Of a stretch of DNA of 64,000 bases, positions 2,254 through 58,273 are shown piece by piece. A model generated the notes under the pieces. The model was not told where the DNA came from and ran no database searches. It worked only from the letters and a program-made list of their open reading frames with translations. The position numbers and the translations under genes are program-made. The DNA is from Candidatus Omnitrophota bacterium (lineage in GTDB: Bacteria; Omnitrophota; Gorgyraeia; Gorgyraeales; Gorgyraeaceae): the NCBI GenBank assembly GCA_026387235.1, contig JAPLMD010000026.1:973-64972 (forward strand). Reading direction: 5' to 3'. Positions within the stretch are counted from its first letter, which is position 1. Every line of letters starts with the position of its first letter.

Positions 2254-2750
2254 GTTTTTCCTGTCAATCCTTCTAAAATTTTCATGCCATCGCCTGAATT
2301 AATCCTGTCCCATCTCTCTAATATCTGAAGCTGTAAACCGTATGCCGCAAGATATTCCGTGTCGAAATAATGGCCGGATTTGATCTCTTCTATCTTCTCC
2401 CATCTTATCTTATCCAGATACATTTCCGCGTCCATGGGCGAATGTTGATTCACTGCCCAGTGCGCCAAAGGCGCGATAAAAGGATCAATGCCCTCGCTGC
2501 CGCGTAAATAACTATTCGGATCTTTGCCTTTTTTAACAGCCCTTGTTCTTGCGAGTTCGTTTCTGAGGCCTGTGTCAAAAATCTTCCATTTTTTCAGCAA
2601 AGGGTTTTTATCCTCTTTTAAAGCGCCCATTTCATCCTGGCTCAATTGCCGGCCGCACTCTTCAAGAAAATCCGAATAAGAGAACGCCGGCTTCATGCCG
2701 AAATGAAGCATAGGTAAACTTGCGATTAAATAATAGTAACTATTTTTCAT
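2250..2750 (-). CDS. Hypothetical protein sitting in the conserved E-x-A slot of Chlamydia/Treponema-type V-ATPase operons
   Basis: 166 aa with no recognisable catalytic motif. Its stop overlaps the atpA start (ATGA). The position between subunit E and subunit A matches the uncharacterised gene found there in chlamydial and spirochaetal V-ATPase operons. Confidence 0.4.
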   Translation of the reverse strand: MKNSYYYLIASLPMLHFGMKPAFSYSDFLEECGRQLSQDEMGALKEDKNPLLKKWKIFDTGLRNELARTRAVKKGKDPNSYLRGSEGIDPFIAPLAHWAVNQHSPMDAEMYLDKIRWEKIEEIKSGHYFDTEYLAAYGLQLQILERWDRINSGDGMKILEGLTGKT

Positions 2751-3349
2751 TTTATTACTTTAGCTAATTCCGGATTAAGATATACGCACAAAGTTTCCAG
2801 CAATCCTTCATCGCTGAAATCAAAATATGATTTGCCTTTATCAAAACTTATGGAAAATCCTGCGTTTATATTTGCCGACGGCCTGAATTCCACGCCGGCC
2901 TTGATCCTGTCCTTTAATTTAGACATGACAGAGTCTTTTATTTTTTCCAGGTCTTCTTTTTTTACCAGCACTTTTATGTCGCCTGCCTGGCTGTTTTTAT
3001 CAATATATTTATCTATCAGGCCTGCCAGTATGCCTGTCATCTCTTCATTGGACAGGGCCTTATTTATCTCGCCTGCTATAATCTTATTTAATATATTTTT
3101 TATATCTTCTTTCAAGGAAAGCAAAAGATCCCTGGATGCATGTTTTACGCTGAGATCGGCATTCGCTTTGGTTTTCTCAGCCTCAACCTTAGCCTTCTGA
3201 ACAATCTCATCAGCAAGTTTCTTGGCGTTTTCCAGTATCTTCCCTGCGTCTACCCTGGCCTTATCTTCTATGGCCCTGGCCTTTTCCTCCGCTGATTTTA
3301 TCCCTTCCTGGTTTATTTTTTCAAGAAGATCTTTTAAATTTTCTGACAT
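2747..3349 (-). CDS. atpE: V-type ATP synthase subunit E (copy 2)
   Basis: 200 aa. Lys/Glu/Ala-rich N-terminal coiled coil (EEKARAIEDKARVDAGKILENAKKLADEIVQKAKVEAEK) plus C-terminal globular part. Operon context. Confidence 0.7.
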   Translation of the reverse strand: MSENLKDLLEKINQEGIKSAEEKARAIEDKARVDAGKILENAKKLADEIVQKAKVEAEKTKANADLSVKHASRDLLLSLKEDIKNILNKIIAGEINKALSNEEMTGILAGLIDKYIDKNSQAGDIKVLVKKEDLEKIKDSVMSKLKDRIKAGVEFRPSANINAGFSISFDKGKSYFDFSDEGLLETLCVYLNPELAKVIK

Positions 3350-3354
3350 AATTC

Positions 3355-3425
3355 ACCTCTATTCTTCTCGACTTCGCTCGAAGAATATTGTTCGAGCGAT
3401 CCGCCGCAGGCGGAGAGTCGAGAAC
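3355..3425. repeat. Small hairpin-forming repeat element, copy 1 (intergenic between usp stop and atpE' start)
   Basis: attcttctcgacttcgctcgaagaata...tgttcgagc...gagtcgagaact is shared with 57003-57070. Arms are imperfectly inverted (TTCTTCTCGACTTCG / CGAAGxCGAGAAGAA). An internal palindrome ccgccgcaggcgg is present. Confidence 0.6.
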
Positions 3426-3432
3426 TCAGGTA

Positions 3433-3909
3433 TTATACTAACTCTTTATACAGCCTCTCTGCTTCTTGGGGATTTTTGAGTATTACTACAGGGCACGGAG
3501 ATTCTCTGAATATCCTTTCTCCCTCGCTGTAAAGCGCCTCTTTCCAGGACAAAACCTCTTTTAGATCTCCCATAACCAGCAGATCAGCCCCTAGTTCTCT
3601 TGCCTTGCCGGCTATTTCGCTATGAACCTCTCCCTTTAAAATCAAGTGTTCAAATTCCACTTTTTTATTTTCCGCCAAGGTTTTAACCCTTTGCATGAAA
3701 AGCCTGGACTGCTGTTCCATGTCTATCTCGTATTCCTTTGCCTCTATCTCCACAAATACCCTGCTTTTCAATAACTCCTGTATCGCGTTTTCGTCTATAA
3801 CATAAACGGCAATCAATTTTACCTGAAGAAGCTTCGCGAGATATATCGCGTACTTCGCGGTAATTATAGAAGCCGGCCCGCCTGCGAGCGGGGTAATAAT
3901 CTGCTTCAT
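3433..3909 (-). CDS. Universal stress protein (UspA family)
   Basis: 158 aa. Usp-type alpha/beta fold motifs (LIAVYVID..., GADLLVMGD...). Located between the two V-ATPase gene sets. Confidence 0.65.
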   Translation of the reverse strand: MKQIITPLAGGPASIITAKYAIYLAKLLQVKLIAVYVIDENAIQELLKSRVFVEIEAKEYEIDMEQQSRLFMQRVKTLAENKKVEFEHLILKGEVHSEIAGKARELGADLLVMGDLKEVLSWKEALYSEGERIFRESPCPVVILKNPQEAERLYKELV

Positions 3910-4523
3910 TACCTTATCCTTTCCTTTATAATCTTCAGCATTGAAAACGCTTCTCTTGAATCTTCGTCAAGCCTGTCGTTTATATATTTCACGCTGTCTT
4001 CATAAAAAGGCAGGTATATCTTTTCAAGGGCATTTACCTTTCTTATTGTTTTCTGGACCTCTTTGGCAATCCTGATAAGAGCTATCTTTTTTTCCGCAAG
4101 CTGGGTTATCAGCTTCAGGACTTCTTTGAACCTTATTATAACTTCATCCACATGAAAACTTACTTCATACGTGCTATAGTACGGAGGGTTTTCCTTTACG
4201 TTCATGTTTATTATAGGCAAGCTTACGCCCATGACTCTTCTTTCGGTAATAGAAAGGTTTGTTTTTATGTCTATTGAAAAACTCAATTCTTCTAATCTTT
4301 TTCTGCCCATTATGACAATGGTTTTATCTACGAGCCCATACGCGCTCTGCATGGCAGCATCCACCTCGCGCTGGAGCTTGTCCACGATATGGACGATAGA
4401 AGTCAGTTCATTTATAAGAATCCTTCTTTTCTCGTCTAAAAGATCGTGGCCTTCTCTTGTGAGAGACAATAGCTTCTTGGACTTTAAAAGATTTGTTTTT
4501 GTGGCGGCAATATTAATTTTCAT
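3909..4523 (-). CDS. atpD: V-type ATP synthase subunit D
   Basis: 204 aa. N-terminus [36 protein letters not shown] matches the subunit D consensus (..PTRMELL.LK.RL..A..GH.LL..KR..L). Follows subunit B. Confidence 0.85.
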
Positions 4524-19237: not shown

Positions 19238-19350
19238 ATAAAATGAAATGGGCTTAACCATTTCTGATTAAGCCCATTATATACTAAAATTATAAAATCC
19301 GCTATATTCACTTTTTACTCCCTTTCCAGCCTCTCTGTGCTGATTTAAAG
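19238..19350 (-). promoter_or_regulatory. PyrR-dependent transcription attenuator: PyrR binding loop plus intrinsic terminator in the pyr leader
   Basis: Leader RNA (minus strand) contains UUUAAAUCAGCACAGAGAGGCUGGAAAGG (19321-19350). This is a near-match to the Bacillus PyrR binding-loop consensus UUUAA.UCCAGAGAGGCU.GCAAGG. Downstream lies the hairpin GGGCUUAAUCAGAAAUGGUUAAGCCC (19250-19275), followed by AUUUCAUUUUAUCU and then the RBS/ATG of pyrR. Confidence 0.75.
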
Positions 19351-19365
19351 GTACTTACTAGTGTT

Positions 19366-20843: not shown

Positions 20844-23073
20844 TATCCTTTAATACGGCATTTGCTATGTTTTCAGCCAACAATTGATTGCCCTTCCTCG
20901 TGCAGTGACCAAAATCACTCCCAAAGTGATCAGTGAAATATTCGTCATAATTACCCTTCTCTAAGGCTGCTTTAAACACAGCTTCATTATCTACGAAGAT
21001 AATACCTTCTTTATCTTCAAAAATATTCTTTAGCGGCTCAAGCTTACGGCAAGGATACTGCACTACCACCAGTCTTATTTTTTTCTGCTCTAGGATTTCT
21101 CTAAGCTTTTGATAGTTATGAATTGTGTTCGCATAAGGCGATAACTTATCTGCCGTTTCCTCGTATCGTTTCTCACTCGACCCGGACTCTAATCTTTCTT
21201 GTGGTTGCGCATTGACTCTGTAATAGTCTCCCAATCCAAGATAGGTGCTGTAATTTCGCAGGCTTTTCTCAAGAGCCCCCTGTAACAATTCTTCCGCATC
21301 ATGCAATTTTCCCTGTTCTATATAAAGCCGGGCCAATTTAGCACATATCTCGTGATTCCCTGGGTTTATTTCTAAACCTTTTGTCCAGACCTGCTGGGCT
21401 TCTTGAAATCTTGTCGCTTCCTCATACAAGCTTCCTAATCTATAGTATGCACATGACTGCCTTGGGTTTATTGATATAGCCTTTACAAACATCTCTTCTG
21501 CTTCCCGGGATTTCCCTTTCGCTTCATAGCAACTACCGAGTCCAAGGCATAGCTCGTAATGTCTTGGATTCATTTTGAGCGCCTTTCGAAACATTTCTAC
21601 TGCTTCCTGGAATGCTGCTCCCCATCTATAATACAACGCAAATTGCTTATATATTTCATAGTGCCCCGGGTTTTGCTTAAGCGCTTTCCTAAGGATTCTT
21701 CTTGCCTCTAACCATCTTCCCATATTGATATAAAACTCACCCAGTGAAAAATACGCTTCATGACTCTTTGGGTTAATTGCAATAGCTCTTTTCAATATAT
21801 TTTCTGCGTCCTTGCTCCTTCCCGTAATTCTATAATGGCGCGCCAATTCATGATACGTATTAATCTTCTGAGGGTATAGTACGATAGCCCGCTGTAACAG
21901 CTCTTCTGCTTCTTTATACCTTCCTGCATCATGATAACCCGATCCTATTGCAACGCATGCTTCATCACTCTCCGGTTTTACAGCGATGAGCTTGTCGTAC
22001 ATCTCTTTTGCTTCCCGGGATTCTCCTCTTTTTACATAATAGAGCCCCAAGGTACAAATTGCTTTGTAATTTTCCGGATTAAGCTCAATAGCCCTCTGAA
22101 GTATATCCTCTGCTTTTTTGTACCTTCCTACTTTCATATAGTACTGACCACATAAAACATAAGCTGCATCGTTTGCGGGAGATATCTCTATGGTCTTTTG
22201 GATCAGCTCTTCTATATCCTGGAGGCGCCCCTCATTGAGATAATATCCACCCAATTCGTAATACGCATCAGTGTTTTGAGGGTTTATTGCAACAGCCTTT
22301 TGGAATAGTTCTTCTGCTTCTTTAAATCTCGCTGTCTCTGCATAGCACTTTCCTAATTCGAAATAGGCCGTATCATCTCCGGCGTCAGCCATGATAGCTT
22401 TTTTAAACATTTCTTCTGCTTCCAGGAATCTTGCTGAATCCAGATAATAACTGCCTAATTCAAGATAGGCTTTGTTATCGCCAGGGTTTATTGCAATGGC
22501 CTTTTGCAGCTTCTCCTCTTCTTTCTTAAACCTTACCGCCATAGAATGCGTTGTTAAAAAGAGGCCTTTTTCTCGCAGTTCTCCAAGTTTATTGGCGCTA
22601 TGCAGCCATAGAAGGTTCACAAGTTTATAGACTCTATATCCCTTCAAAAAAGATAATATTCGAGGAAAAGGCATACTCTCATAAGGAAGAATATCTGAGT
22701 CATTTATCCCCATCATCGTAATTACCATATCAGGATGGTATTTATTCAACTGATCGGGTAATCGTCTTAAAATATCTCTTGTGGTGATTCCGCTGACTCC
22801 TCCATTGATAACAACGAACTTAACCCCAATATTATTCTTATTCAGTATCTGCTGAAGCTGAGAAGGATAGGAGCCCTTTTTTGTGTGCGCTGTCGTAGAC
22901 TCACCTAAACAAAGAATACGATATGCCTTTCCTTCGCGAATAACCTTTTCATTTCTGTATTGCTGCAAAGATATGAGTGCCCAGCCCCCCAGTCGCAATC
23001 CTAGCTCAAGGATAATCACACATACAACTAACCCAATAAGTATTAAAATTACTTTTTCTCTAAGTCTCAGCAT
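20821..23073 (-). CDS. Membrane-anchored SGNH/GDSL-type hydrolase split by a ~450-aa TPR-repeat array
   Basis: 750 aa. N-terminal TM helix. SGNH block I CLGESTT, blocks II/III GGVSGITT / MMGINDSD. About 12 TPR repeats follow. The catalytic block V DFGHCT sits at the extreme C-terminus. Confidence 0.65.
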   Translation of the reverse strand: MLRLREKVILILIGLVVCVIILELGLRLGGWALISLQQYRNEKVIREGKAYRILCLGESTTAHTKKGSYPSQLQQILNKNNIGVKFVVINGGVSGITTRDILRRLPDQLNKYHPDMVITMMGINDSDILPYESMPFPRILSFLKGYRVYKLVNLLWLHSANKLGELREKGLFLTTHSMAVRFKKEEEKLQKAIAINPGDNKAYLELGSYYLDSARFLEAEEMFKKAIMADAGDDTAYFELGKCYAETARFKEAEELFQKAVAINPQNTDAYYELGGYYLNEGRLQDIEELIQKTIEISPANDAAYVLCGQYYMKVGRYKKAEDILQRAIELNPENYKAICTLGLYYVKRGESREAKEMYDKLIAVKPESDEACVAIGSGYHDAGRYKEAEELLQRAIVLYPQKINTYHELARHYRITGRSKDAENILKRAIAINPKSHEAYFSLGEFYINMGRWLEARRILRKALKQNPGHYEIYKQFALYYRWGAAFQEAVEMFRKALKMNPRHYELCLGLGSCYEAKGKSREAEEMFVKAISINPRQSCAYYRLGSLYEEATRFQEAQQVWTKGLEINPGNHEICAKLARLYIEQGKLHDAEELLQGALEKSLRNYSTYLGLGDYYRVNAQPQERLESGSSEKRYEETADKLSPYANTIHNYQKLREILEQKKIRLVVVQYPCRKLEPLKNIFEDKEGIIFVDNEAVFKAALEKGNYDEYFTDHFGSDFGHCTRKGNQLLAENIANAVLKDIGSRDYD

Positions 23074-31012: not shown

Positions 31013-32401
31013 TTAATCGGCAACTGAATACAATAAAACCATGAAGGCCTCTTGCAAACTTCTAATTTTATTCGGCAGTATTTTCCATATTCGCCACATC
31101 TGGCGCGGCCGGAGGTAAAATTCCCTGAATAACTTCGCATGCATCCTTTTTAATTCCCGGTCGGAAAGCGATGAGGCATTCGTGGAAAACTTATGATAAT
31201 CGTGGGCACTGAATTTCTTTAATTTAACATTCTCTCTGTCAAGCTCATTAAATATCTCCGTCTTCGGCTGTGGAATAAGATAAAAAAAGTCTGCTATGTG
31301 AAATCCTGCATCTTTTGCAAATCTAAGAGTCTGGAGCACCTCTTCCTTTGTTTCACCGGGGAATCCCAGCATAAAATAGCCGCAGGTAACTATGCCCTGT
31401 TTGATGGTTTGAGCGATGATGTGTCTGGCCTTATCAAGATCAAGGTTCTTCTTGACAATCTTCTGGATCCGTGGCGAGGCTGACTCAATGGCATAAAAGA
31501 TCACGCGTGCCCCCGCCTGCTTTAGCTTTACGATAAGCTCTTCATCCATCCTGTCGACGCGAAGGCCGTTGGGAAAAGAAAGGGCTATCTTGATGCCGCG
31601 GCGGATTATCTCATCGCAGATGCGCTTGGCCCGAGGAAGGTCGAAATTAAAGCAGTCATCGATAACCTCTATCTCCTGAACCCCATAGTTTTTGATCAAG
31701 GCCTCAATCTCTTCAATGACATTCTCAACACTCCTGAACCTGATCTTTTTGCCAAAGATATTATGGCAGTAGGTGCATTGGTAGGGACAACCCCGGGAGG
31801 TAAATAAAGACGCGATCCTGTTAGAGGTGGGAATGGGGTTCTGTGAATGGTTGCGAATGTCCTTAAAATATCCCTCCATGTTGATAATATCCCATGCAGG
31901 AAAAGGAATGACGTCAAGGTCTTCGATCGCCGACTGCACAGGGTTGACTACACAGGTCCCGTTGTTTTTAAAGGCCATGCCATCGATTTCCGAGAAATCT
32001 TTTCCTTCTTGTAAAGCGTTGATAAGCCTGGCGGCTGTCCTTTCCCCCTCCCCGATGACCACGAAATCTACGTTCTGGTCTTTCATGATGTGTTCGGGGC
32101 TGGAGGTAGCGTACGGGCCGCCTACGATTACTTTGCAGTTAGCGTCAATCTCCTTGGCTAACCTGGCAAGCCTATGGACATGGGCAGACTCCATGCTCAT
32201 GCCGGAAATGCCGACCACATCGGGGGAAAGAGCTTTTATGCGCCGGGAAACGGCCTTATCGCTGAGACGCTCATGCCGGGCGTCAATAATGGTTATATCG
32301 TGATATCCCTGGCTTCTGAGATATGAGGCGAGGTAGAGGGGACCGAGCGGAATAAGGTGTTTGACCTCAGGTGAATTCGCTATGATGAAAGCTATTTTCA
32401 T
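31013..32401 (-). CDS. B12-binding-domain radical SAM protein (tandem duplicate 1)
   Basis: 462 aa. TSRGCPYQCTYCHNIFGKK motif. About 80% identical to 32422-33813. Confidence 0.8.
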   Translation of the reverse strand: MKIAFIIANSPEVKHLIPLGPLYLASYLRSQGYHDITIIDARHERLSDKAVSRRIKALSPDVVGISGMSMESAHVHRLARLAKEIDANCKVIVGGPYATSSPEHIMKDQNVDFVVIGEGERTAARLINALQEGKDFSEIDGMAFKNNGTCVVNPVQSAIEDLDVIPFPAWDIINMEGYFKDIRNHSQNPIPTSNRIASLFTSRGCPYQCTYCHNIFGKKIRFRSVENVIEEIEALIKNYGVQEIEVIDDCFNFDLPRAKRICDEIIRRGIKIALSFPNGLRVDRMDEELIVKLKQAGARVIFYAIESASPRIQKIVKKNLDLDKARHIIAQTIKQGIVTCGYFMLGFPGETKEEVLQTLRFAKDAGFHIADFFYLIPQPKTEIFNELDRENVKLKKFSAHDYHKFSTNASSLSDRELKRMHAKLFREFYLRPRQMWRIWKILPNKIRSLQEAFMVLLYSVAD

Positions 32402-32421: not shown

Positions 32422-33813
32422 TTATTTACCTATCAGGATACGGCTTAGGACAACAAGCCCATTCCTTAAAAGTATCCTCTTGTCCGGAATCGCCTTCCAT
32501 ATCCGCCACATTTGTCCGGGTCGAAAATAAAATTCTCTGTGCGCCATCGACCAAATATTTTGCAGCTCATGATCCGTAACCGCCGAAGCATTATAGGTTA
32601 ACCGCTGATAACAATTAATCTTGATATTTCTTAGGTCGCCATTCTTTCCGAAAAGATCATTGAACATCTCTGTATTCGGCGGAGGAGTTACATAAAACAT
32701 ATTTATTATATGAAAAGGCATATCTTTAGCGAATCTGACCGTCTGAAGCATCTCTTCCTTTGTCTCCCCGGGAAATCCCAGCATGAAATAACCGCAGGTA
32801 ACTATGCCATGGTCAGCCGTGTAGTTGATGATTTTCTTGGCCTTCTCTAAATCGAGGTTTTTCTTGATTCTCTGCTGTATTGTGGGCGATGCGGACTCTA
32901 TAGCGTAAAATATTATATACGTACCCGCCTGCTTTAACTTTATGATAAGCTCTTCATCCATCCTATCGACCCGAAGGGCGTTGGGAAAAGAAAGGGTTAT
33001 TTTGATGCCGCGCCTGATGATCTCATCGCAAATCTCTTTTGCCCTGGGAAGGTCGAAATTAAAGCAGTCATCAATGATCTCTATCTCCTGGACCCTATAG
33101 CGCTTAACCAAGGCCTCGATCTCTTCCATGACATTCCCGACACTCCTGAACCTGATCTTTTTGCCGAAGATATTATGGCAGTAGGTGCATCGGTACGGAC
33201 ACCCCCGGGAGGTAAATAAAGGCGCGATCCTATTGGATGTAGGAATGGGATTATTCGAATGATTATGAATATCCTTAAAATATCCTTCCATATCGATAAG
33301 ATCCCAGGCAGGGAAAGGAATGGCGTCAAGGTCTTCGATCGCCGACTGCACAGGGTTGACTACACAGGTCCCGTTGTTTTTAAAGGCCAGGCCATCAATT
33401 TCCGAGAAATCTTTTCCCTCTTGTAAAGCGTTGATAAGCCTGGCGGTTGTCCTTTCCCCCTCACCGATGATCACGAAGTCCACATTCGAATCTTTCAGGA
33501 TGCGTTCGGGGCTGGAGGTAGCGTATGGGCCGCCTACGATTACTTTGCAGTTCCTATCAACCGCCTTGGCTAACCCCGCAAGGCTATGAATCTCTGAAGA
33601 CTCCATACTCAAACCAGAAATACCGACCACATCAGGGGAAAGGTCTTTTATGCTCCGGGAAATACCCGCATGGCCCAGGTGTTTGTGCCTAGCGTCAATA
33701 ATGCTTATATCGTGATATCCTTCTCTTCTTAGATAAGAAGCGACGCAAAGAGGACCTAGCGGAATACTGCGTATGACCTCACGTGCATTGGGTATGACGA
33801 AAGTTATCTTCAT
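32422..33813 (-). CDS. B12-binding-domain radical SAM protein (tandem duplicate 2)
   Basis: 463 aa. TSRGCPYRCTYCHNIFGKK. Shares stretches of more than 55 bp of identical DNA with the neighbouring copy. Confidence 0.8.
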   Translation of the reverse strand: MKITFVIPNAREVIRSIPLGPLCVASYLRREGYHDISIIDARHKHLGHAGISRSIKDLSPDVVGISGLSMESSEIHSLAGLAKAVDRNCKVIVGGPYATSSPERILKDSNVDFVIIGEGERTTARLINALQEGKDFSEIDGLAFKNNGTCVVNPVQSAIEDLDAIPFPAWDLIDMEGYFKDIHNHSNNPIPTSNRIAPLFTSRGCPYRCTYCHNIFGKKIRFRSVGNVMEEIEALVKRYRVQEIEIIDDCFNFDLPRAKEICDEIIRRGIKITLSFPNALRVDRMDEELIIKLKQAGTYIIFYAIESASPTIQQRIKKNLDLEKAKKIINYTADHGIVTCGYFMLGFPGETKEEMLQTVRFAKDMPFHIINMFYVTPPPNTEMFNDLFGKNGDLRNIKINCYQRLTYNASAVTDHELQNIWSMAHREFYFRPGQMWRIWKAIPDKRILLRNGLVVLSRILIGK

Positions 33814-37070: not shown

Positions 37071-39400
37071 CTTGCGTCCCTCGTCCCTCTATAAAAATAA
37101 GACCTATAATCCAAAGGAATTTTCCCTGCCTCATGAACCCATCCCTCTGTCTCATAATTATATCTTCTCATCACTCCTACTCCTAACCCCTCATATATAT
37201 AAGGCCAAAATATTTGATCCGTATACCTTATAAGCTTTGTGCATCCCTCAATGTTGTAGGCAAACCTCCACCCAATACCGGTCCCTAAACCTCTGTAGAG
37301 ATACGGACGATACTCCTGGTCAACCGCCCTTAAAAATAAAACGTATTTTGTTACATCATGGATAAATCTCCACCCTACTTCGATACCAAGGCGCTGGTAA
37401 CATAGAGGCTTATATTTTTCTTCTATCTTACTCATAATCATTTTCCATGTGCCGATATTATAACCAACCTTCCCAATACCGAACCCAAAATCATCATAAA
37501 TGCACCGATAATATTCTTTTCCCTGAGCCAATCCTGCATATATCACGGGTTCAAATCTTTTATCCACCGCATTCATGAAACGAAAGAATTTTTCCGGTTG
37601 GTCAACTAAAACGTCAAATAGCTCAATCCCCATCCCGCTATAAAAAAATGGCTCATATTCCTCATCAATCTTTTTCCGAAAATCCATGAGCGCATGCTTC
37701 GGATTGTCGTGCACCTCACGGGCGGCCTGGCGGCCCACGCCGCTATAAAAATAAGAAGCCAGTTTGGGGTCAAGATAGTTCTTTAATTCGGCACCGGTTG
37801 CTTTATCGTACCTGAGTTCCCTCTCTAATGCCTCCCCCATCCACTCGTATGCATAAGGCCAGTAATTCCTCTCGATCTTATGTATCCAGGTACTAAGATA
37901 TAAGCGATAATCATTATCAAATTTATCTTCAGCGTATCCCCAACCCATACCGGAATAACAATACCGCCTGGCCTCTCCGTCCTTAATCCCTTTTATGGAA
38001 TCGACCCATCTGGAGGAACCGTCAAACCTCCAGGCGATCACTCTGCCTAGATCATAATAGTTGTAACCCCGGTAGATCCCTGATAAGGCAGCCTTATGCA
38101 AGGGATCTTTAGAAATGAAATTAAAATTAGAGACTAACCCCAGCCCCAGCAAAAACGCCATAATACAGAAATTTAAATACGGCGCGAAAAAACTCCTGAA
38201 TTGCGTGCGTTTTCCGTACAGGAATATGACTATCATAGCAGGAATAAAAAGACCGACAGGCGCGACATGCCTGTAACGGAACACGCTGCTTTCATAATAA
38301 CTCATATTAAATTGTATACCGGAAAGGCTGAGGGTAAAAACGAACACTGCAAAAAACACAAGCAAGAATACCTCTTTGGATATCTCTTGAGGCAATACGG
38401 AGAAACGCGGCAAAGGAATAATGCCTCGTATGATCTTTAGCAAAGACCTGCGGTTGAGCCACGATAGGGCGCAGAAAGAAATCACAAATACAAAGTAATA
38501 AATACGGGACAAAAACCAGTGGCCGAGCAATGCCTGAGGCTCAAACTCCAAAATAGGATCGGAAAAAGTAAAAATTCCTGGCATATCAATGGTAAAAAAA
38601 TTCTTAAGCCTTAAAAAGAAATTAACAGGGTTATTACCTGCGAACCAGTGAGAAAGGAGGTGATCGCATACGATTAATCCTTGAAAATTATGGGTGAGAT
38701 TATACCAGATCCAGGGAGCAAGGCCGGTTAAAAAGGCGGCGGCAAAGATAAAGAATTCGCTTTTGAGAAAAAACTTCTTATCGAAAATATACCAGAATAA
38801 AATAATAGTCAATAATGTCGGTAAAAAACTGTAATGAAAGAACATGCCAAAACCGCAAACTACTCCTAAGAGCCCGAACAGGACTTTCTTTTTTCTTACA
38901 AAAAAAATCTGGTAAAAGATTAATACCGCCATCATGGTGAAGAAATTGACCTCGTAAAGCGCGCCGTAATTGGAAACGCTGGCCTTTATCCAGCCAGGCT
39001 GCGGGAAAATCAAAAGTAAACTTGTCCAAACTGCTACCCTCCTATTGAAAAACCTATCTAAAAATAAATACCACAAAATGAATAAGCCTGTTCCTGTCAA
39101 TAGCCCCACAAATTTGAGAGATATCAACTTATCTCCAAAAAGCAAAAAAAACGGCACCGCCAAGATGCCGCTTACCAATGAACCGCCTTCATATTCACTC
39201 CTTTGGTAATCAAAGAAGGGAAAGGCTTGACCCGAAATCAATTCCTTGGATATGTTACCGCGGTATAATTCTTCATCCAGACTCACCAGGTCTATTGCGC
39301 AAAACAAAACCAGCAGCCTAACCAATAAATACAGCAGGGTTAAGCCTACCAAATACGCATACCTGCTATTGACAATCCGGATTGCCCTGGACATATTCAT
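37067..39400 (-). CDS. GT-C fold membrane glycosyltransferase (PMT_2/ArnT-like) with C-terminal Tyr/Gly-rich tandem-repeat domain (paralog 1). The start is probably at the internal Met (MNMSRAI), so the CDS spans 37067-39400.
   Basis: The ORF track shows 813 aa to 39508; the trimmed start avoids an 85-nt overlap. N-terminal polytopic domain aligns to paralogs at 43072 and 47595. C-terminal ~380 aa consist of about 10 repeats of ...YRPxxYxGxGxxxGWRF... Confidence 0.55.
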   Translation of the reverse strand: MNMSRAIRIVNSRYAYLVGLTLLYLLVRLLVLFCAIDLVSLDEELYRGNISKELISGQAFPFFDYQRSEYEGGSLVSGILAVPFFLLFGDKLISLKFVGLLTGTGLFILWYLFLDRFFNRRVAVWTSLLLIFPQPGWIKASVSNYGALYEVNFFTMMAVLIFYQIFFVRKKKVLFGLLGVVCGFGMFFHYSFLPTLLTIILFWYIFDKKFFLKSEFFIFAAAFLTGLAPWIWYNLTHNFQGLIVCDHLLSHWFAGNNPVNFFLRLKNFFTIDMPGIFTFSDPILEFEPQALLGHWFLSRIYYFVFVISFCALSWLNRRSLLKIIRGIIPLPRFSVLPQEISKEVFLLVFFAVFVFTLSLSGIQFNMSYYESSVFRYRHVAPVGLFIPAMIVIFLYGKRTQFRSFFAPYLNFCIMAFLLGLGLVSNFNFISKDPLHKAALSGIYRGYNYYDLGRVIAWRFDGSSRWVDSIKGIKDGEARRYCYSGMGWGYAEDKFDNDYRLYLSTWIHKIERNYWPYAYEWMGEALERELRYDKATGAELKNYLDPKLASYFYSGVGRQAAREVHDNPKHALMDFRKKIDEEYEPFFYSGMGIELFDVLVDQPEKFFRFMNAVDKRFEPVIYAGLAQGKEYYRCIYDDFGFGIGKVGYNIGTWKMIMSKIEEKYKPLCYQRLGIEVGWRFIHDVTKYVLFLRAVDQEYRPYLYRGLGTGIGWRFAYNIEGCTKLIRYTDQIFWPYIYEGLGVGVMRRYNYETEGWVHEAGKIPLDYRSYFYRGTRDAR

Positions 39401-55954: not shown

Positions 55955-58273
55955 ATGATAATGAAACTAAGCCTGAAATTAAACGCCGGCGCTTTTATAC
56001 TAGGCCTTACTTCAATGATAGGCCAGATAATCATTATAAGAGAGCTTGTCAGCGCATTTTACGGCAATGAGCTTTCTTTAGGGATCATCCTCGCATCGTG
56101 GCTCTTTTGGGTTTCGTTCGGCAGTTTGATCCTCGGGAGGCTAGCGGACTTTATCTCTTCCAAAGAAAAACTGCTGTCGCACATACAACTTGCCTTATCA
56201 ATACTTATACCTTTGGATATATTCTTTATCCGCGTTATAAAATCAATTTTAAAGATCCCTGCAGGGAAAATCATCGGCTTGGCGCAGATGCTGGGCGCGT
56301 CTTTTGTATCCCTATCCGCCGTGTGCGCATTATTGGGCCTTAGTTTTATATTGATATCAAAGATTGCCGCAAAAGATAATAACCTGCCGGCTAAGCAGGT
56401 AGGAAAGATTTATCTATTGGAAGGGCTGGGGGCTTCTGTCGGAGGCCTCATATATACGTTTCTCCTTATAAAAGCGTATACGCCTTTTCAAAACGCGCTC
56501 ATTCTCGGGAATCTGAATCTGATCGCGTCGATATTATTCAACAGGAACATAGTCCAGCTGGTATATCTTGTAATATTTTCAACCACGGTCATGTTCAACT
56601 GGCCAAAACACATAGATGGATTCACGAGATCTCTTCAGGTAAGGCCTCTTAAACTCATAGAAAATGCAGACTCAATATACGGAAACATCACTGTAGCAAA
56701 ATTAGAAAATCAATATAGCTTTTATGAAAACGGCGCGTTGATGTTTACCGGAGGGGACATATCAACCAGCGAAGAATCTGTTCATTACGCGATGCTTGAA
56801 CACCCGCAGCCTAAAAAGATACTGCTCGTCGGAGGCGGGATAGGAGGCGCAATAAACCAGATTTTAAAACATAAGCCCGCCAGGATTGATTACGTGGAAT
56901 TAGATCCGTTAATGATAAGCCTTTCCCAAAAATACCTCCCTCCGATAACAGATGACAGGGTAAACATCATACACACAGACGGCAGGCTTTTTGTGAAAGA
57001 TTATTCTTCTCGACTTCGCTCGAAGAATAATAGCGATACTGTTCGAGCAAGCGAAGCGAGTCGAGAACTATCAGGCTACGATGTAGTAATACTAAACCTT
57101 CCTGACCCTTATACTGCAAGCCTCAATAGATTTTATTCCCTGGAATTCTTCCAGGAGGTTAAAAAAATACTGGAGCCAGGGGGTTTATTTTCGTTCGGCC
57201 TTCTTTCTTCCGAGAATTACATAAGCCCGGAACACGCCATGTATCTGAGCTGTATTTATAATACGCTTAAAAAAGAATTCTCTGATGTGAAAATACTCCC
57301 CGGAGATAATATGACGTTTATCGCGTCGCAGGACTCCGGCAGCCTTACTGATGACGCAAACACCATAATAAAAAGGCTGAAGGAAAGAAATATCAAAACC
57401 AAGTTCGTAAGAGAGTATTACATACCTTTTAAATTAGACCCCCTGAGAATCAAATATGTAGAAAGCGCTATCCAAAAATTTAATAATACTAAAATCAATA
57501 CTGACTTCAGGCCTATCGGTTATCTTTATCACGCCATATTATGGGTGAGCTTTTTCGACGCCACGAGAAATTTCCTGCCTTACGTTGATAAGATAAATAT
57601 AGGCATTTTTATCCTGCTGGCATTTGCTTTTTTTATCATAACCCTGTTGACGCAGAAATTAACCATGGCAACTTTAAAATTCCCTGTTCTGATATCCGCC
57701 GGCGCGACAGGCATGAGCCAGATATGTTTTCAGGTAATCATCATGCTGGCGTTCCAATTTATATACGGCTACATGTATTATCAGTTAGGATTTATCCTTA
57801 CCTCATTCATGATAGGGCTCACGCTCGGAAGTTTTTTAATAACAAGCTTCATGGAAAAGATAGAGGATGAAAAATCATTGTATATTAAAACTCAGGCGTG
57901 GATGTCTGTTTATCCGCTGATTCTCGCTATAACCTTGATGGCTGTAGCAAAAATAAACCGGGCCTTTCCTGCCGCGGGAAACATGCTTCAGATAGTTTTT
58001 TTAATAATGCCTGTATTGGGCGGTTTTATAGGCGGATTCCAATTCATTCTCGCGAATAAAATATGGCTCAAAGATTCCAAAGACGTCGGAAAAACAACAG
58101 GCCTTCTCTACGGCATTGATTTAATCGGTTCATGCATAGGCGGGCTGGCAATAGGCGTGATACTCATCCCTCTCCTGGGGATCATTCAGACATGCGCGCT
58201 CTTGAGCGTTATAAATATCTTTATTTTTATATTAATCTCGAATTCCAGGCCTTGTTTTATCCAAAAAATGTGA
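55955..58273 (+). CDS. Polytopic membrane protein fused to a spermidine-synthase-like (aminopropyltransferase-fold) domain
   Basis: 772 aa. About 6 N-terminal and 6 C-terminal TM helices flank a central SpeE-like domain (LLVGGGIGGAINQIL...DYVELDP...HTDGRLFV...YDVVILNLPDP). The only plus-strand gene in the window. Confidence 0.65.
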   Translation: MIMKLSLKLNAGAFILGLTSMIGQIIIIRELVSAFYGNELSLGIILASWLFWVSFGSLILGRLADFISSKEKLLSHIQLALSILIPLDIFFIRVIKSILKIPAGKIIGLAQMLGASFVSLSAVCALLGLSFILISKIAAKDNNLPAKQVGKIYLLEGLGASVGGLIYTFLLIKAYTPFQNALILGNLNLIASILFNRNIVQLVYLVIFSTTVMFNWPKHIDGFTRSLQVRPLKLIENADSIYGNITVAKLENQYSFYENGALMFTGGDISTSEESVHYAMLEHPQPKKILLVGGGIGGAINQILKHKPARIDYVELDPLMISLSQKYLPPITDDRVNIIHTDGRLFVKDYSSRLRSKNNSDTVRASEASRELSGYDVVILNLPDPYTASLNRFYSLEFFQEVKKILEPGGLFSFGLLSSENYISPEHAMYLSCIYNTLKKEFSDVKILPGDNMTFIASQDSGSLTDDANTIIKRLKERNIKTKFVREYYIPFKLDPLRIKYVESAIQKFNNTKINTDFRPIGYLYHAILWVSFFDATRNFLPYVDKINIGIFILLAFAFFIITLLTQKLTMATLKFPVLISAGATGMSQICFQVIIMLAFQFIYGYMYYQLGFILTSFMIGLTLGSFLITSFMEKIEDEKSLYIKTQAWMSVYPLILAITLMAVAKINRAFPAAGNMLQIVFLIMPVLGGFIGGFQFILANKIWLKDSKDVGKTTGLLYGIDLIGSCIGGLAIGVILIPLLGIIQTCALLSVINIFIFILISNSRPCFIQKM
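57003..57070. repeat. Hairpin repeat element copy 2, inserted in-frame inside the spermidine-synthase-like CDS
   Basis: Shares a 27-nt left arm (attcttctcgacttcgctcgaagaata) and right arm (tgttcgagc...gagtcgagaact) with 3355-3425. It encodes ...SSRLRSKNNSDTVRASEASRELSG..., placed in the loop between the DGR and YDVVI motifs of the SpeE fold. Confidence 0.6.

Follow-up and report, generated by a model that had tools for sequence, protein, structure and literature searches.

The window examined here is a 64-kb stretch of an Omnitrophota contig; coordinates refer to it throughout, and L-numbers denote fetched loci from relatives or other genomes. Two copies of a small palindromic element lie in it: copy 1, in the spacer between a Usp gene (usp) and a V-ATPase-E-like gene (atpE-like); and copy 2, in frame inside the gene of a fused membrane/spermidine-synthase-like protein. 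In aggregate, the comparisons below make it probable that both copies are gene-less, non-autonomous selfish DNA, akin to Rickettsia palindromic elements (RPEs) and to REPINs, the inverted doublets of repetitive extragenic palindromic (REP) sequences, with a GIY-YIG nuclease as partner. Two exact occurrences of the 28-nt string TATTCTTCTCGACTTCGCTCGAAGAATA lie in the window, at 3360-3387 and at 57002-57029, each on the + strand; no extra match appears in the window at up to 3 mismatches, and 100 shuffles gave none. The 12-nt string GAGTCGAGAACT is likewise common to both, at 3415-3426 and 57058-57069. These exact strings bear out, to within a few bases, the shared arms of a preliminary description of this DNA, and its placing of copy 1 between usp and the atpE-like gene agrees with open reading frame (ORF) positions and Pfam matches. 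The middles of the two copies are unlike: copy 1 contains TCCGCCGCAGGCGGA, and copy 2 an added ATAGCGATAC spacer and AAGCGAAGCGA. Each doublet is 67-68 nt long in the window and has no coding capacity of its own.

The two arms are related to each other. In other loci the minimal form of the second arm is GTTCGAGCGAAGTCGAGAAC, the reverse complement of the first-arm core TTCTCGACTTCGCTCGAA. Both arms being copies, in opposite orientation, of an 18-nt core, the element consists of two inverted units of ~24 nt, A and B, which together form a doublet. The inverted repeats of the preliminary description are thus real, but they are two units of a single core and not separate motifs. Each unit is an imperfect palindrome, bounded by TA in both window copies. 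The sequence of A is TTCTTCTCGACTTCGCTCGAAGAA; B has the inverted variant GTTCGAGCGA[hairpin]GAGTCGAGAAC, in which a further hairpin is nested. The predicted fold of copy 1 is three-way, with: an outer stem, TTCTCGACT/AGTCGAGAA; an inner stem, CGCTCGAA/TTCGAGCG; and a side hairpin. Structure had been suspected in each copy. It is strong in copy 1, which folds far better than its shuffles (DNA z = -6.7 and -5.9; RNA z = -4.5 and -4.1), and weak in copy 2 (DNA z = -1.4 and -1.7). All 6 reading frames of copy 1, 5 of the 6 of copy 2 and all 6 of both unit A and minimal B are free of stop codons.

Among 51 listed doublets in which A precedes B, the inserts at the centre of B fall into classes. Short ones comprise 2-3 nt, such as GAA (8 copies). 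An 11-nt class, typified by GAGCGAAGCGA with GCGAAGC inside, has 12 copies, 5 of them the exact string. In a hairpin class, GA..GA flanks enclose perfect GC hairpins of 4-8 bp whose triloops are C-GAA-G or C-GCA-G. The folding energy of B inserts is -0.36 kcal/mol per nt, against -0.15 in shuffles. GCGAAGC is a very stable DNA mini-hairpin, and GNA triloops are typical of stable DNA hairpins, C-GAA-G and C-GCA-G being hallmarks of DNA rather than RNA hairpins.

A structured non-coding RNA or small ribozyme built on the three-way junction is highly improbable. In its favour are the copy 1 junction itself, with the RNA z of -4.5, and a third stem that varies between copies by complementary changes. 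The junction linkers, however, are 1 nt long and there is no conserved core; stems I and II are invariant and therefore provide no covariation. The element stands in both orientations to transcription, copy 2 folds poorly and the triloops are DNA-like. An Rfam scan around copy 1 returned only chance-level matches (E >= 2.6, with E up to 10 considered), and a gathering-level scan of the whole window had a PyrR binding site as its sole match and no family for the element. A hammerhead-like ribozyme, prompted by the three-way fold, was rejected on sequence. An integron attC site, with core sites RYYYAAC ... GTTRRRY, was also considered: the units end in TTCTTC/GAAGAA and GTTC/GAAC, and GTTCGAG departs from GTTRRRY. 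With this misfit and no integrase cluster near the listed copies, the attC reading was rejected.

The distribution of the family was followed with the exact 23-mer of unit A in 185,579 species-representative genomes; all counts are lower bounds. At least 118 stretches from ~59 assemblies contain it, in Omnitrophota, the candidate phyla radiation (CPR) and a few other phyla. By record title these are: Omnitrophota, at least 54 loci in 14 assemblies, one of them a single-cell genome; CPR/Patescibacteria, at least 33 loci in 24 assemblies; metagenome-assembled genomes (MAGs) labelled Gammaproteobacteria, at least 21 loci in 13 assemblies; and Auribacterota, WOR-3, Bdellovibrio, Planctomycetia and unclassified records, at least 10 loci in 8 assemblies. 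In each of the related Omnitrophota assemblies there are at least 5-13 copies of the exact core. The earlier expectation of many copies genome-wide thus holds for these relatives, the genome at hand being seen through 64 kb. Of 121 listed copies, 51 have A then B (the window type, mostly Omnitrophota), 35 have B upstream of A (mostly CPR) and 35 have A alone. In 119 of the 121, the 23-mer is preceded by a C.

The core is uniform to a degree that its surroundings are not. In 344 kb of unselected Omnitrophota DNA, the 20-mer core was found 4 times exactly, never with 1-3 errors and twice badly disrupted, so that copies of the core are either perfect or broken. Unit A is 28/28 identical in the window, L012 and L122, although the left flanks are 79-83% identical. 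Among copies at one gene position (L076, L085 and L102), A is perfect while the unit centres turn over. This letter-perfect 24-nt core is a ready marker for more copies. An assembly, binning or contamination artefact can practically be dismissed as the source of the pattern. Most sources are MAGs, and an exact 23-mer across phyla is unusual; but the string is present in the single-cell genome JBHPHU01 and on contigs of up to 365 kb from independent projects and assemblers. Intact genes also hold it in frame, and different species have it at one shared gene position with internal parts that vary.

Near the 23-mer in L029, L054, L058 and L076 there is a related hairpin family with a conserved loop, TCGACAAGCTC / GAGCTTGTCGA, and copy-specific stems, sometimes nested within unit B. 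This family appears to be the source of peptides such as 'FDKLR..' and 'LSLSK..' in many hypothetical proteins.

All-versus-all clustering of ORFs within 2.5 kb of the 121 listed copies revealed no recurrent transposase, Y1 or integrase, no whole-genome scan having been made; the largest cluster covers 12 loci, nearly all Omnitrophota. One kind of gene is nevertheless bounded by the units. Small GIY-YIG genes were first seen right after unit A among the ORFs of L018 (Curtissbacteria) and L077 (Omnitrophota), and the DNA around six further members of this nuclease family was then fetched. Eight independent loci have both flanks on the contig (L018, L203, L204-209, L210, L211-214, L215 and L216-223), and in all 8 the gene is bounded by units as inverted repeats. 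L077 is a ninth locus, with its left end only, because the contig stops. The left end lies 3-25 nt before the ATG and reads TA-TTCTTCGAGCGA[optional hairpin]GAGTCGAGAAG (TA-TTCTTCGAGCG..GTCGAGAAG), the reverse complement of A; in L216 it is the exact reverse complement of the window 24-mer. The right end lies 0-7 nt after the stop and reads (G)TTCTCGAC-N3-4-GCTCGAAC-AATA (TTCTCGAC..GCTCGAACAATA), the reverse complement of a B-type unit.

The resulting cassette, ~0.35 kb long, is found in both CPR and Omnitrophota genomes. In the Daviesbacteria locus L204 the same two substitutions occur at both ends (TTCTCC..GGTCGAA), which indicates that the cassette ends co-evolve. Every cassette locus has different neighbour genes, from which it follows that the cassette itself has moved. 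In L210 and L215 the nuclease gene is embedded in arrays of alternating units. The gene-less junction in L210, GAGAAG|TTCTCGAC, forms a palindrome, and this is precisely where the nuclease gene sits. The window-type doublet corresponds to the two outer cassette ends abutted on one TA (...GCTCGAACAA-TA-TTCTTCGAGC...) and resembles a circle or head-to-tail junction. An internal deletion of the cassette would yield the order B then A, which is the CPR form. In L211 (282-1508, hisS, and 1501-1773), the cassette's left end and the 3' end of hisS overlap, so that the last HisRS residues are apparently encoded by a repeat unit.

The encoded nuclease is of the Slx1/UPF0213 type, 88-90 aa long, and matches Pfam PF01541 (E = 1.7e-15) over residues 6-78. 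Its 326 close relatives are mostly 88-90 aa and 64-82% identical across CPR and Omnitrophota. In 120 members, the motif positions GIY (VYI), YIG (YTG), Arg, His (QH) and the Glu of RE.QIK are at least 95% conserved. The nearest solved relatives are UPF0213 proteins BH0048 (1zg2) and EF2693 (1ywl). No model of the NCBIfam and PADLOC (defence-system) libraries matched the nuclease. Prokaryotic Slx1-family proteins are described as a minimal stand-alone GIY-YIG domain without auxiliary domains (PMC1564403). Eukaryotic Slx1 is characterised as a structure-selective nuclease. COG2827-like GIY-YIG genes near copies in L007, L020, L036 and L060 were set aside, being of a different subfamily and not unit-bounded. 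A phage vector was rejected, as neither the 24-mer nor the nuclease gene was found in a viral contig collection.

Copy 1 provides a view of the insertion site. It nearly fills the 83-nt usp-atpE spacer, 6 nt from the Usp stop, and adjoins the Shine-Dalgarno sequence of the atpE-like gene. The site was compared among 18 relatives with AtpE identity of 72-84%. In L135 the orthologous site is empty and reads TAA-TA-GAGGTG; the window minus strand reads TAA-TA-[CCTGA GTTCTCGAC...GTCGAGAAGAA]-TA-GAGGTG. Copy 1 is therefore accompanied by a TA duplication relative to this empty site. In L124 the site is filled and B has another hairpin, in L128 the copy has decayed, and in the copy of the more distant L143 a hairpin takes the place of the A unit; the remaining relatives have unrelated spacers. 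Across 50 listed doublets, TA follows GAGAAC in 12, against a background of 6.5% (p = 6e-5).

Around the same site (window 2300-4400), L125 is 82-100% identical on the usp side of copy 1 (at least 90% in most 60-nt windows) and 72-85% identical across the first ~300 nt on the atpE side. This suggests, as far as the alignment goes, a recombination breakpoint at or near copy 1, less clean than at copy 2.

Copy 2 lies in a protein with 1403 homologs, the closest of them in Omnitrophota, and an AlphaFold model of mean pLDDT 88.4. It was thought to add ~22 residues by simple insertion. The reading frame is indeed maintained, but copy 2 encodes 25 residues (350-374), YSSRLRSKNNSDTVRASEASRELSG, and Y375 of the conserved YDVVILNLPDP motif comes directly after. 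Across 120 orthologs, the stretch within DGRLFVK-YDVVILNLPDP is: 2-4 residues in distant members; EAS..G.L.TPYK in most members of the window gene's clade; and the element-derived peptide in a scattered minority, intact or decayed to YSS(R/K)...RE(P/L)(S/T)G. The peptide is thus lineage-specific, as the preliminary description had supposed. The nearest relative, L119 (protein P0001, 91% identical), has 38 nt where the window has 77 nt. It follows that copy 2 is a replacement of a 13-residue loop and not a clean insertion or TA duplication. In the AlphaFold model the first inserted residues extend a helix, residues 360-374 are coil, with pLDDT <50 at 363-371, and the strand 375-381 follows. The model supports the predicted location of the peptide in a surface loop between this helix and the YDVVILN strand. 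Solved structures of the spermidine-synthase domain were also tried for placing the insert; their alignment was too poor around it, and AlphaFold was used instead.

The history of copy 2 is legible in its flanks. On an ortholog tree for which the loop was masked, genes with the element are interspersed with genes that lack it. Around the copy, all 27 informative sites of the tract 56918-57197 agree with L122, L012 and L121, which bear the element, and outside this tract 31 of 108 do (Fisher p = 1.4e-12). Beyond the tract, most 60-nt windows of the gene show 82-98% identity to L119 (at least 83% downstream). The tract sites indicate that the element-bearing allele was imported with ~85 nt of upstream and ~120-130 nt of downstream flank, and such recombination accounts for the scattered presence on the ortholog tree. 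Copy 2 arrived by homologous recombination with co-converted flanks, not by transposition, and is direct evidence of homing-like allelic spread.

These observations bear on an ordinary MITE (miniature inverted-repeat transposable element) of a DDE transposon (IS630/Tc1-mariner), with its transposase elsewhere, TA cut-and-paste and the GIY-YIG gene a mere passenger. Such an origin is distinctly unlikely. It would fit the small size, the terminal inverted repeats, the want of coding capacity, the TA duplication at copy 1 and the enrichment of TA at borders. However, no transposase family recurs within 2.5 kb in the 118 listed loci, and the only gene found unit-bounded is GIY-YIG, in all eight two-flank loci and at the left end of L077. 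The allelic spread of copy 2 through recombination rather than transposition is a further argument against it. Units of 24 nt are also shorter than most known binding sites within terminal inverted repeats (TIRs).

Copies inside genes are common. Long open frames (at least 50 codons to the left and at least 90 to the right) span 24 of the 121 listed copies, and a looser ORF call gives 43; roughly a fifth to a third of copies thus lie in frame inside genes. Hosts above NCBIfam cut-offs are SecA, GatB, QueA, AroA and AsnB; DHFR and ribosomal protein L1 are clear matches below the cut-off; and LeuRS, MurE and an M1-type aminopeptidase were identified by eye. The main frames are antisense YSSSEVEK (17 copies), antisense ILRAKSR (6 copies) and sense SSRLRSKN. 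In an IleRS encoded by a CPR MAG, a variable loop contains YSSSEVEKYTLSLSKGSRQARTI, and an 86%-identical ortholog is without the insert. Translation of the inserts together with the host gene is predicted from the intact frames. These in-frame hosts and the further copies support the preliminary view of a MITE/REP-like structured element that tolerates insertion into coding sequence.

Proteins of small-genome CPR and Omnitrophota, among them SecA, aminoacyl-tRNA synthetases and ribosomal protein L1, would thereby gain loop insertions from selfish DNA. This bears on protein insertions in these groups that have lacked an explanation, and on annotation, alignment and horizontal exchange between lineages.

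AroA of the Omnitrophota assembly JAUYDX01 (L111:2885-4420, minus strand) has further in-frame repeat peptides, for example KVPAATCEVGQAGEP / KLPAATCEVGQSKRE and LTLTLSPKGRGNKESRLSPSGRGKGEG, and a second A/B-like copy (TRSKNIVRAIRLGGESRT). The repeat peptides suggest that other coding-tolerant repeat families live in these genomes.

The constancy of unit A could also reflect selection at each locus for a host-useful cis element (a protein-binding hairpin, an mRNA stabiliser or processing site, or a translation signal), the intragenic copies being by-products. The identity of A in orthologous copies whose flanks are 79-98% identical is what this proposal would predict. Of 42 intergenic cases in which the left gene is divergent, 17 have the A end within 24 nt of a start codon; an A-type unit stands directly before the GIY-YIG ATG; and orientation is biased, A being antisense to host or flanking genes 60 times and sense 25 times. 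A host function is nonetheless unlikely: unrelated essential genes contain copies in either orientation and in several frames; close relatives differ in whether they have the element at each of the two window sites, with the L128 copy degraded; and no Rfam family matched.

A REP/REPIN element moved by a RAYT, a REP-associated tyrosine transposase (HUH Y1) acting on single-stranded hairpins during replication, is very unlikely. Points of resemblance are short imperfect palindromes in the 20-40 nt range, inverted doublets, GNA triloops, a 3:1 orientation bias relative to genes, and alternating arrays near the partner gene in L210 and L215 like those of bacterial interspersed mosaic elements (BIMEs). 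Against this, no Y1 or other recurrent gene was found near the listed copies, the unit sequence is without a GTAG or CGTC head, a TA duplication is present, and a fifth or more of copies are intragenic, REPs being extragenic. The spread across phyla also contrasts with the REPIN-RAYT system, which is described as vertically inherited (10.1101/2022.05.22.493013).

If the units are instead selfish DNA served by the GIY-YIG nuclease, movement would involve: recognition and cutting, by the nuclease, of a hairpin or cruciform formed by the units; repair of the breaks from other copies, so that A would stay perfect while unit centres turn over; repair from an element-bearing allele, which would leave the co-conversion tract at copy 2 and amount to a homing-like drive through related genomes; and rare capture at TA, which could seed new sites such as copy 1. 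Within genes, only in-frame, stop-free insertions in tolerant surface loops would be expected to survive. That the nuclease acts in trans on the hairpin or cruciform of the units, as their motor, is nearly an even call. Somewhat less firmly, and only as a tentative proposal, the whole can be drawn together as a new class of prokaryotic mobile DNA in which a minimal Slx1-like GIY-YIG nuclease, in place of a transposase, would cut the hairpin or cruciform of its own 24-nt terminal units. Break repair would then copy, homogenise and spread units and doublets within and between genomes and across CPR and Omnitrophota, including in frame into essential genes.

Several points weigh against this proposal. 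The recombination tract at copy 2 needs no dedicated nuclease, and the movement of units is read from comparison of sequences. The TA duplication comes from one orthologous site together with a statistical enrichment, and TA stands on both sides in just 6 of the 50 listed doublets. The abutment of outer ends means that the window doublet is not a simple internal-deletion derivative of the cassette. A separate sequence-specific DNA-binding domain is not evident in the 88-90-aa nuclease, and no GIY-YIG gene lies in the 64-kb window, no whole-genome co-occurrence scan having been made. Because the scan demanded an exact 23-mer to give its at least 118 stretches, both the divergence spectrum and the taxon list are biased. 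The list carries a further doubt. IleRS of L103 (CAYHPG010000002.1, 'uncultured Gammaproteobacteria') is 86% identical to an Uhrbacteria protein, and its named top matches are nearly all Patescibacteria, which casts doubt on the Gammaproteobacteria label of at least one MAG. Mislabelling may thus account for the element's apparent presence in that group, and the safe range of the family is Omnitrophota and CPR, with a few others.

Table 1. Features of the two element copies and their surroundings in the window
Feature	Position	Strand	Remark
Copy 1 unit A with TA borders, TA-TTCTTCTCGACTTCGCTCGAAGAA-TA	3360..3387	+	exact 28-mer common to copy 2
Copy 1 unit B, TTGTTCGAGCGA-[TCCGCCGCAGGCGGA]-GAGTCGAGAAC	3388..3425	+	inverted A core split by nested GC hairpin
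Copy 1 nested GC hairpin, C-GCA-G triloop	3400-3414	+	inside unit B
Copy 1 right border, TCAGG then TA	3426..3432	+	TA duplicated by comparison with a relative's empty site
Start codon (3347-3349) and Shine-Dalgarno GAGGTG (3354-3359) of V-ATPase-E-like gene	3347..3359	-	adjoins A end of copy 1
Usp gene	3433-3909	-	Pfam Usp, 56 bits
V-ATPase-E-like gene	2747-3349	-	Pfam vATP-synt_E, 21.9 bits, below cut-off
Copy 2 unit A with TA borders	57002..57029	+	reads in frame YSSRLRSKN, residues 350-358
Copy 2 spacer ATAGCGATAC and unit B, TGTTCGAGC-AAGCGAAGCGA-GTCGAGAAC	57030..57068	+	
Copy 2 mini-hairpin GCGAAGC	57051-57057	+	within unit B
Copy 2 right border, TA-TCAGGC	57069..57076	+	codes for last inserted residues, to G374
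Copy 2 host, fused membrane/spermidine-synthase-like protein, 772 aa	55955..58273	+	Pfam Spermine_synth, 85.7 bits
Recombination (co-conversion) tract around copy 2	56918..57197	+	outer bounds 56882 and 57229

Other features of the window stand apart from the element. The PyrR binding site (Rfam RF00515) lies at 19242-19355 on the minus strand and scores 54.5 bits against a gathering score of 54. Two paralogous regions, 21005-23070 and 45521-47577, ~24.5 kb apart and 66-76% identical, have a 102-nt internal periodicity consistent with 34-residue repeats of the tetratricopeptide (TPR-like) kind. A direct duplicate at 31228-31714 and 32640-33126 (spacing 1412 nt, 77-80% identical) probably represents tandem paralogous genes. 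Three related segments at 38684-39184, 44692-45222 and 48762-49283 (spacing 6008 and 4070 nt, 61-85% identical) are probably three paralogous genes.

The palindromic family is apparently undescribed so far. Full-text searches with the element's DNA strings, with the peptides SSSEVEK, SRLRSKN, ILRAKSR and SRQARTI, and for GIY-YIG with REP/REPIN/RAYT/MITE or palindromic repeats in Patescibacteria, found no description in the literature. Among characterised systems, Correia elements are 100-155 bp long and genus-specific, with 26-bp TIRs and no transposase assigned; they are not known to share bounding repeats with a nuclease gene. The present element resembles Correia/NEMIS and other TA-targeting MITEs as a small TIR element with TA flanks, often upstream of genes (PMC10969869). 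Its very small, hairpin-forming character is shared with yeast mitochondrial GC clusters (PMC4478555), and mitochondrial hairpin elements are similarly placed near recombination sites (PMC8209160). The mitochondrial GC clusters and double-hairpin elements differ in being organellar, in their sequence and in having no repeat-bounded partner nuclease. Both kinds can nest in themselves, can be in frame in coding regions and occur beside mobile endonuclease genes. The small dispersed repeats (SDRs) of Nostoc reportedly have hairpin units of 21-27 nt, insert into one another and into other hairpins, and have tandem heptamers nearby. SDRs are confined to cyanobacteria, are not known to be related in sequence, and have no partner gene. 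Tandem GGGATTT heptamer runs adjoin units in CPR-type loci (L008, ~1470-1500; L024, ~920-945), a likeness to SDRs.

With GIY-YIG homing genes (PMC1564403) the cassette shares its catalytic domain, its existence as a small mobile gene in varied contexts and, around the associated element at gene-less copy 2, the co-conversion of flanking markers. Unlike classical GIY-YIG homing enzymes, which combine a long DNA-binding domain with a single target site, the present protein has 88-90 aa and its putative targets are dispersed palindromes. Like REP/REPIN/BIME-RAYT systems (PMC3116915, PMC2817692), the family has short palindromes of two alternating unit types, an inverted doublet thought to be the mobile form, and a low-copy, repeat-flanked partner gene with unit clusters nearby. 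It departs from them in that the partner is GIY-YIG and not HUH Y1, in the absence of a GTAG/CGTC head, and in its intragenic copies, cross-phylum distribution and TA duplication.

RPEs are inserted in frame in many housekeeping genes (Ogata et al. 2000, 2002, as summarised in PMC10969869). They are palindromic, add a peptide to unrelated housekeeping genes and lack a transposase of their own, all of which applies here; they are confined to Rickettsia, measure ~100-150 bp and have no known partner gene. Compared by description and not by sequence, the present family has 24-nt units and ~67-nt doublets, lies in Omnitrophota and CPR, and bounds a GIY-YIG gene. How RPEs move has been left open since no enzyme was tied to them; here a candidate nuclease of 90 residues is bounded by the units. 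On the points compared, the family belongs to none of these systems. The element is of a kind already known, small palindromic selfish DNA tolerated in coding sequence, with three features for which no description was found: a core shared across phyla, a unit-bounded GIY-YIG gene and homing-like spread. Its closest counterparts are the Rickettsia palindromic elements in behaviour and the REPIN/BIME-RAYT systems in organisation.

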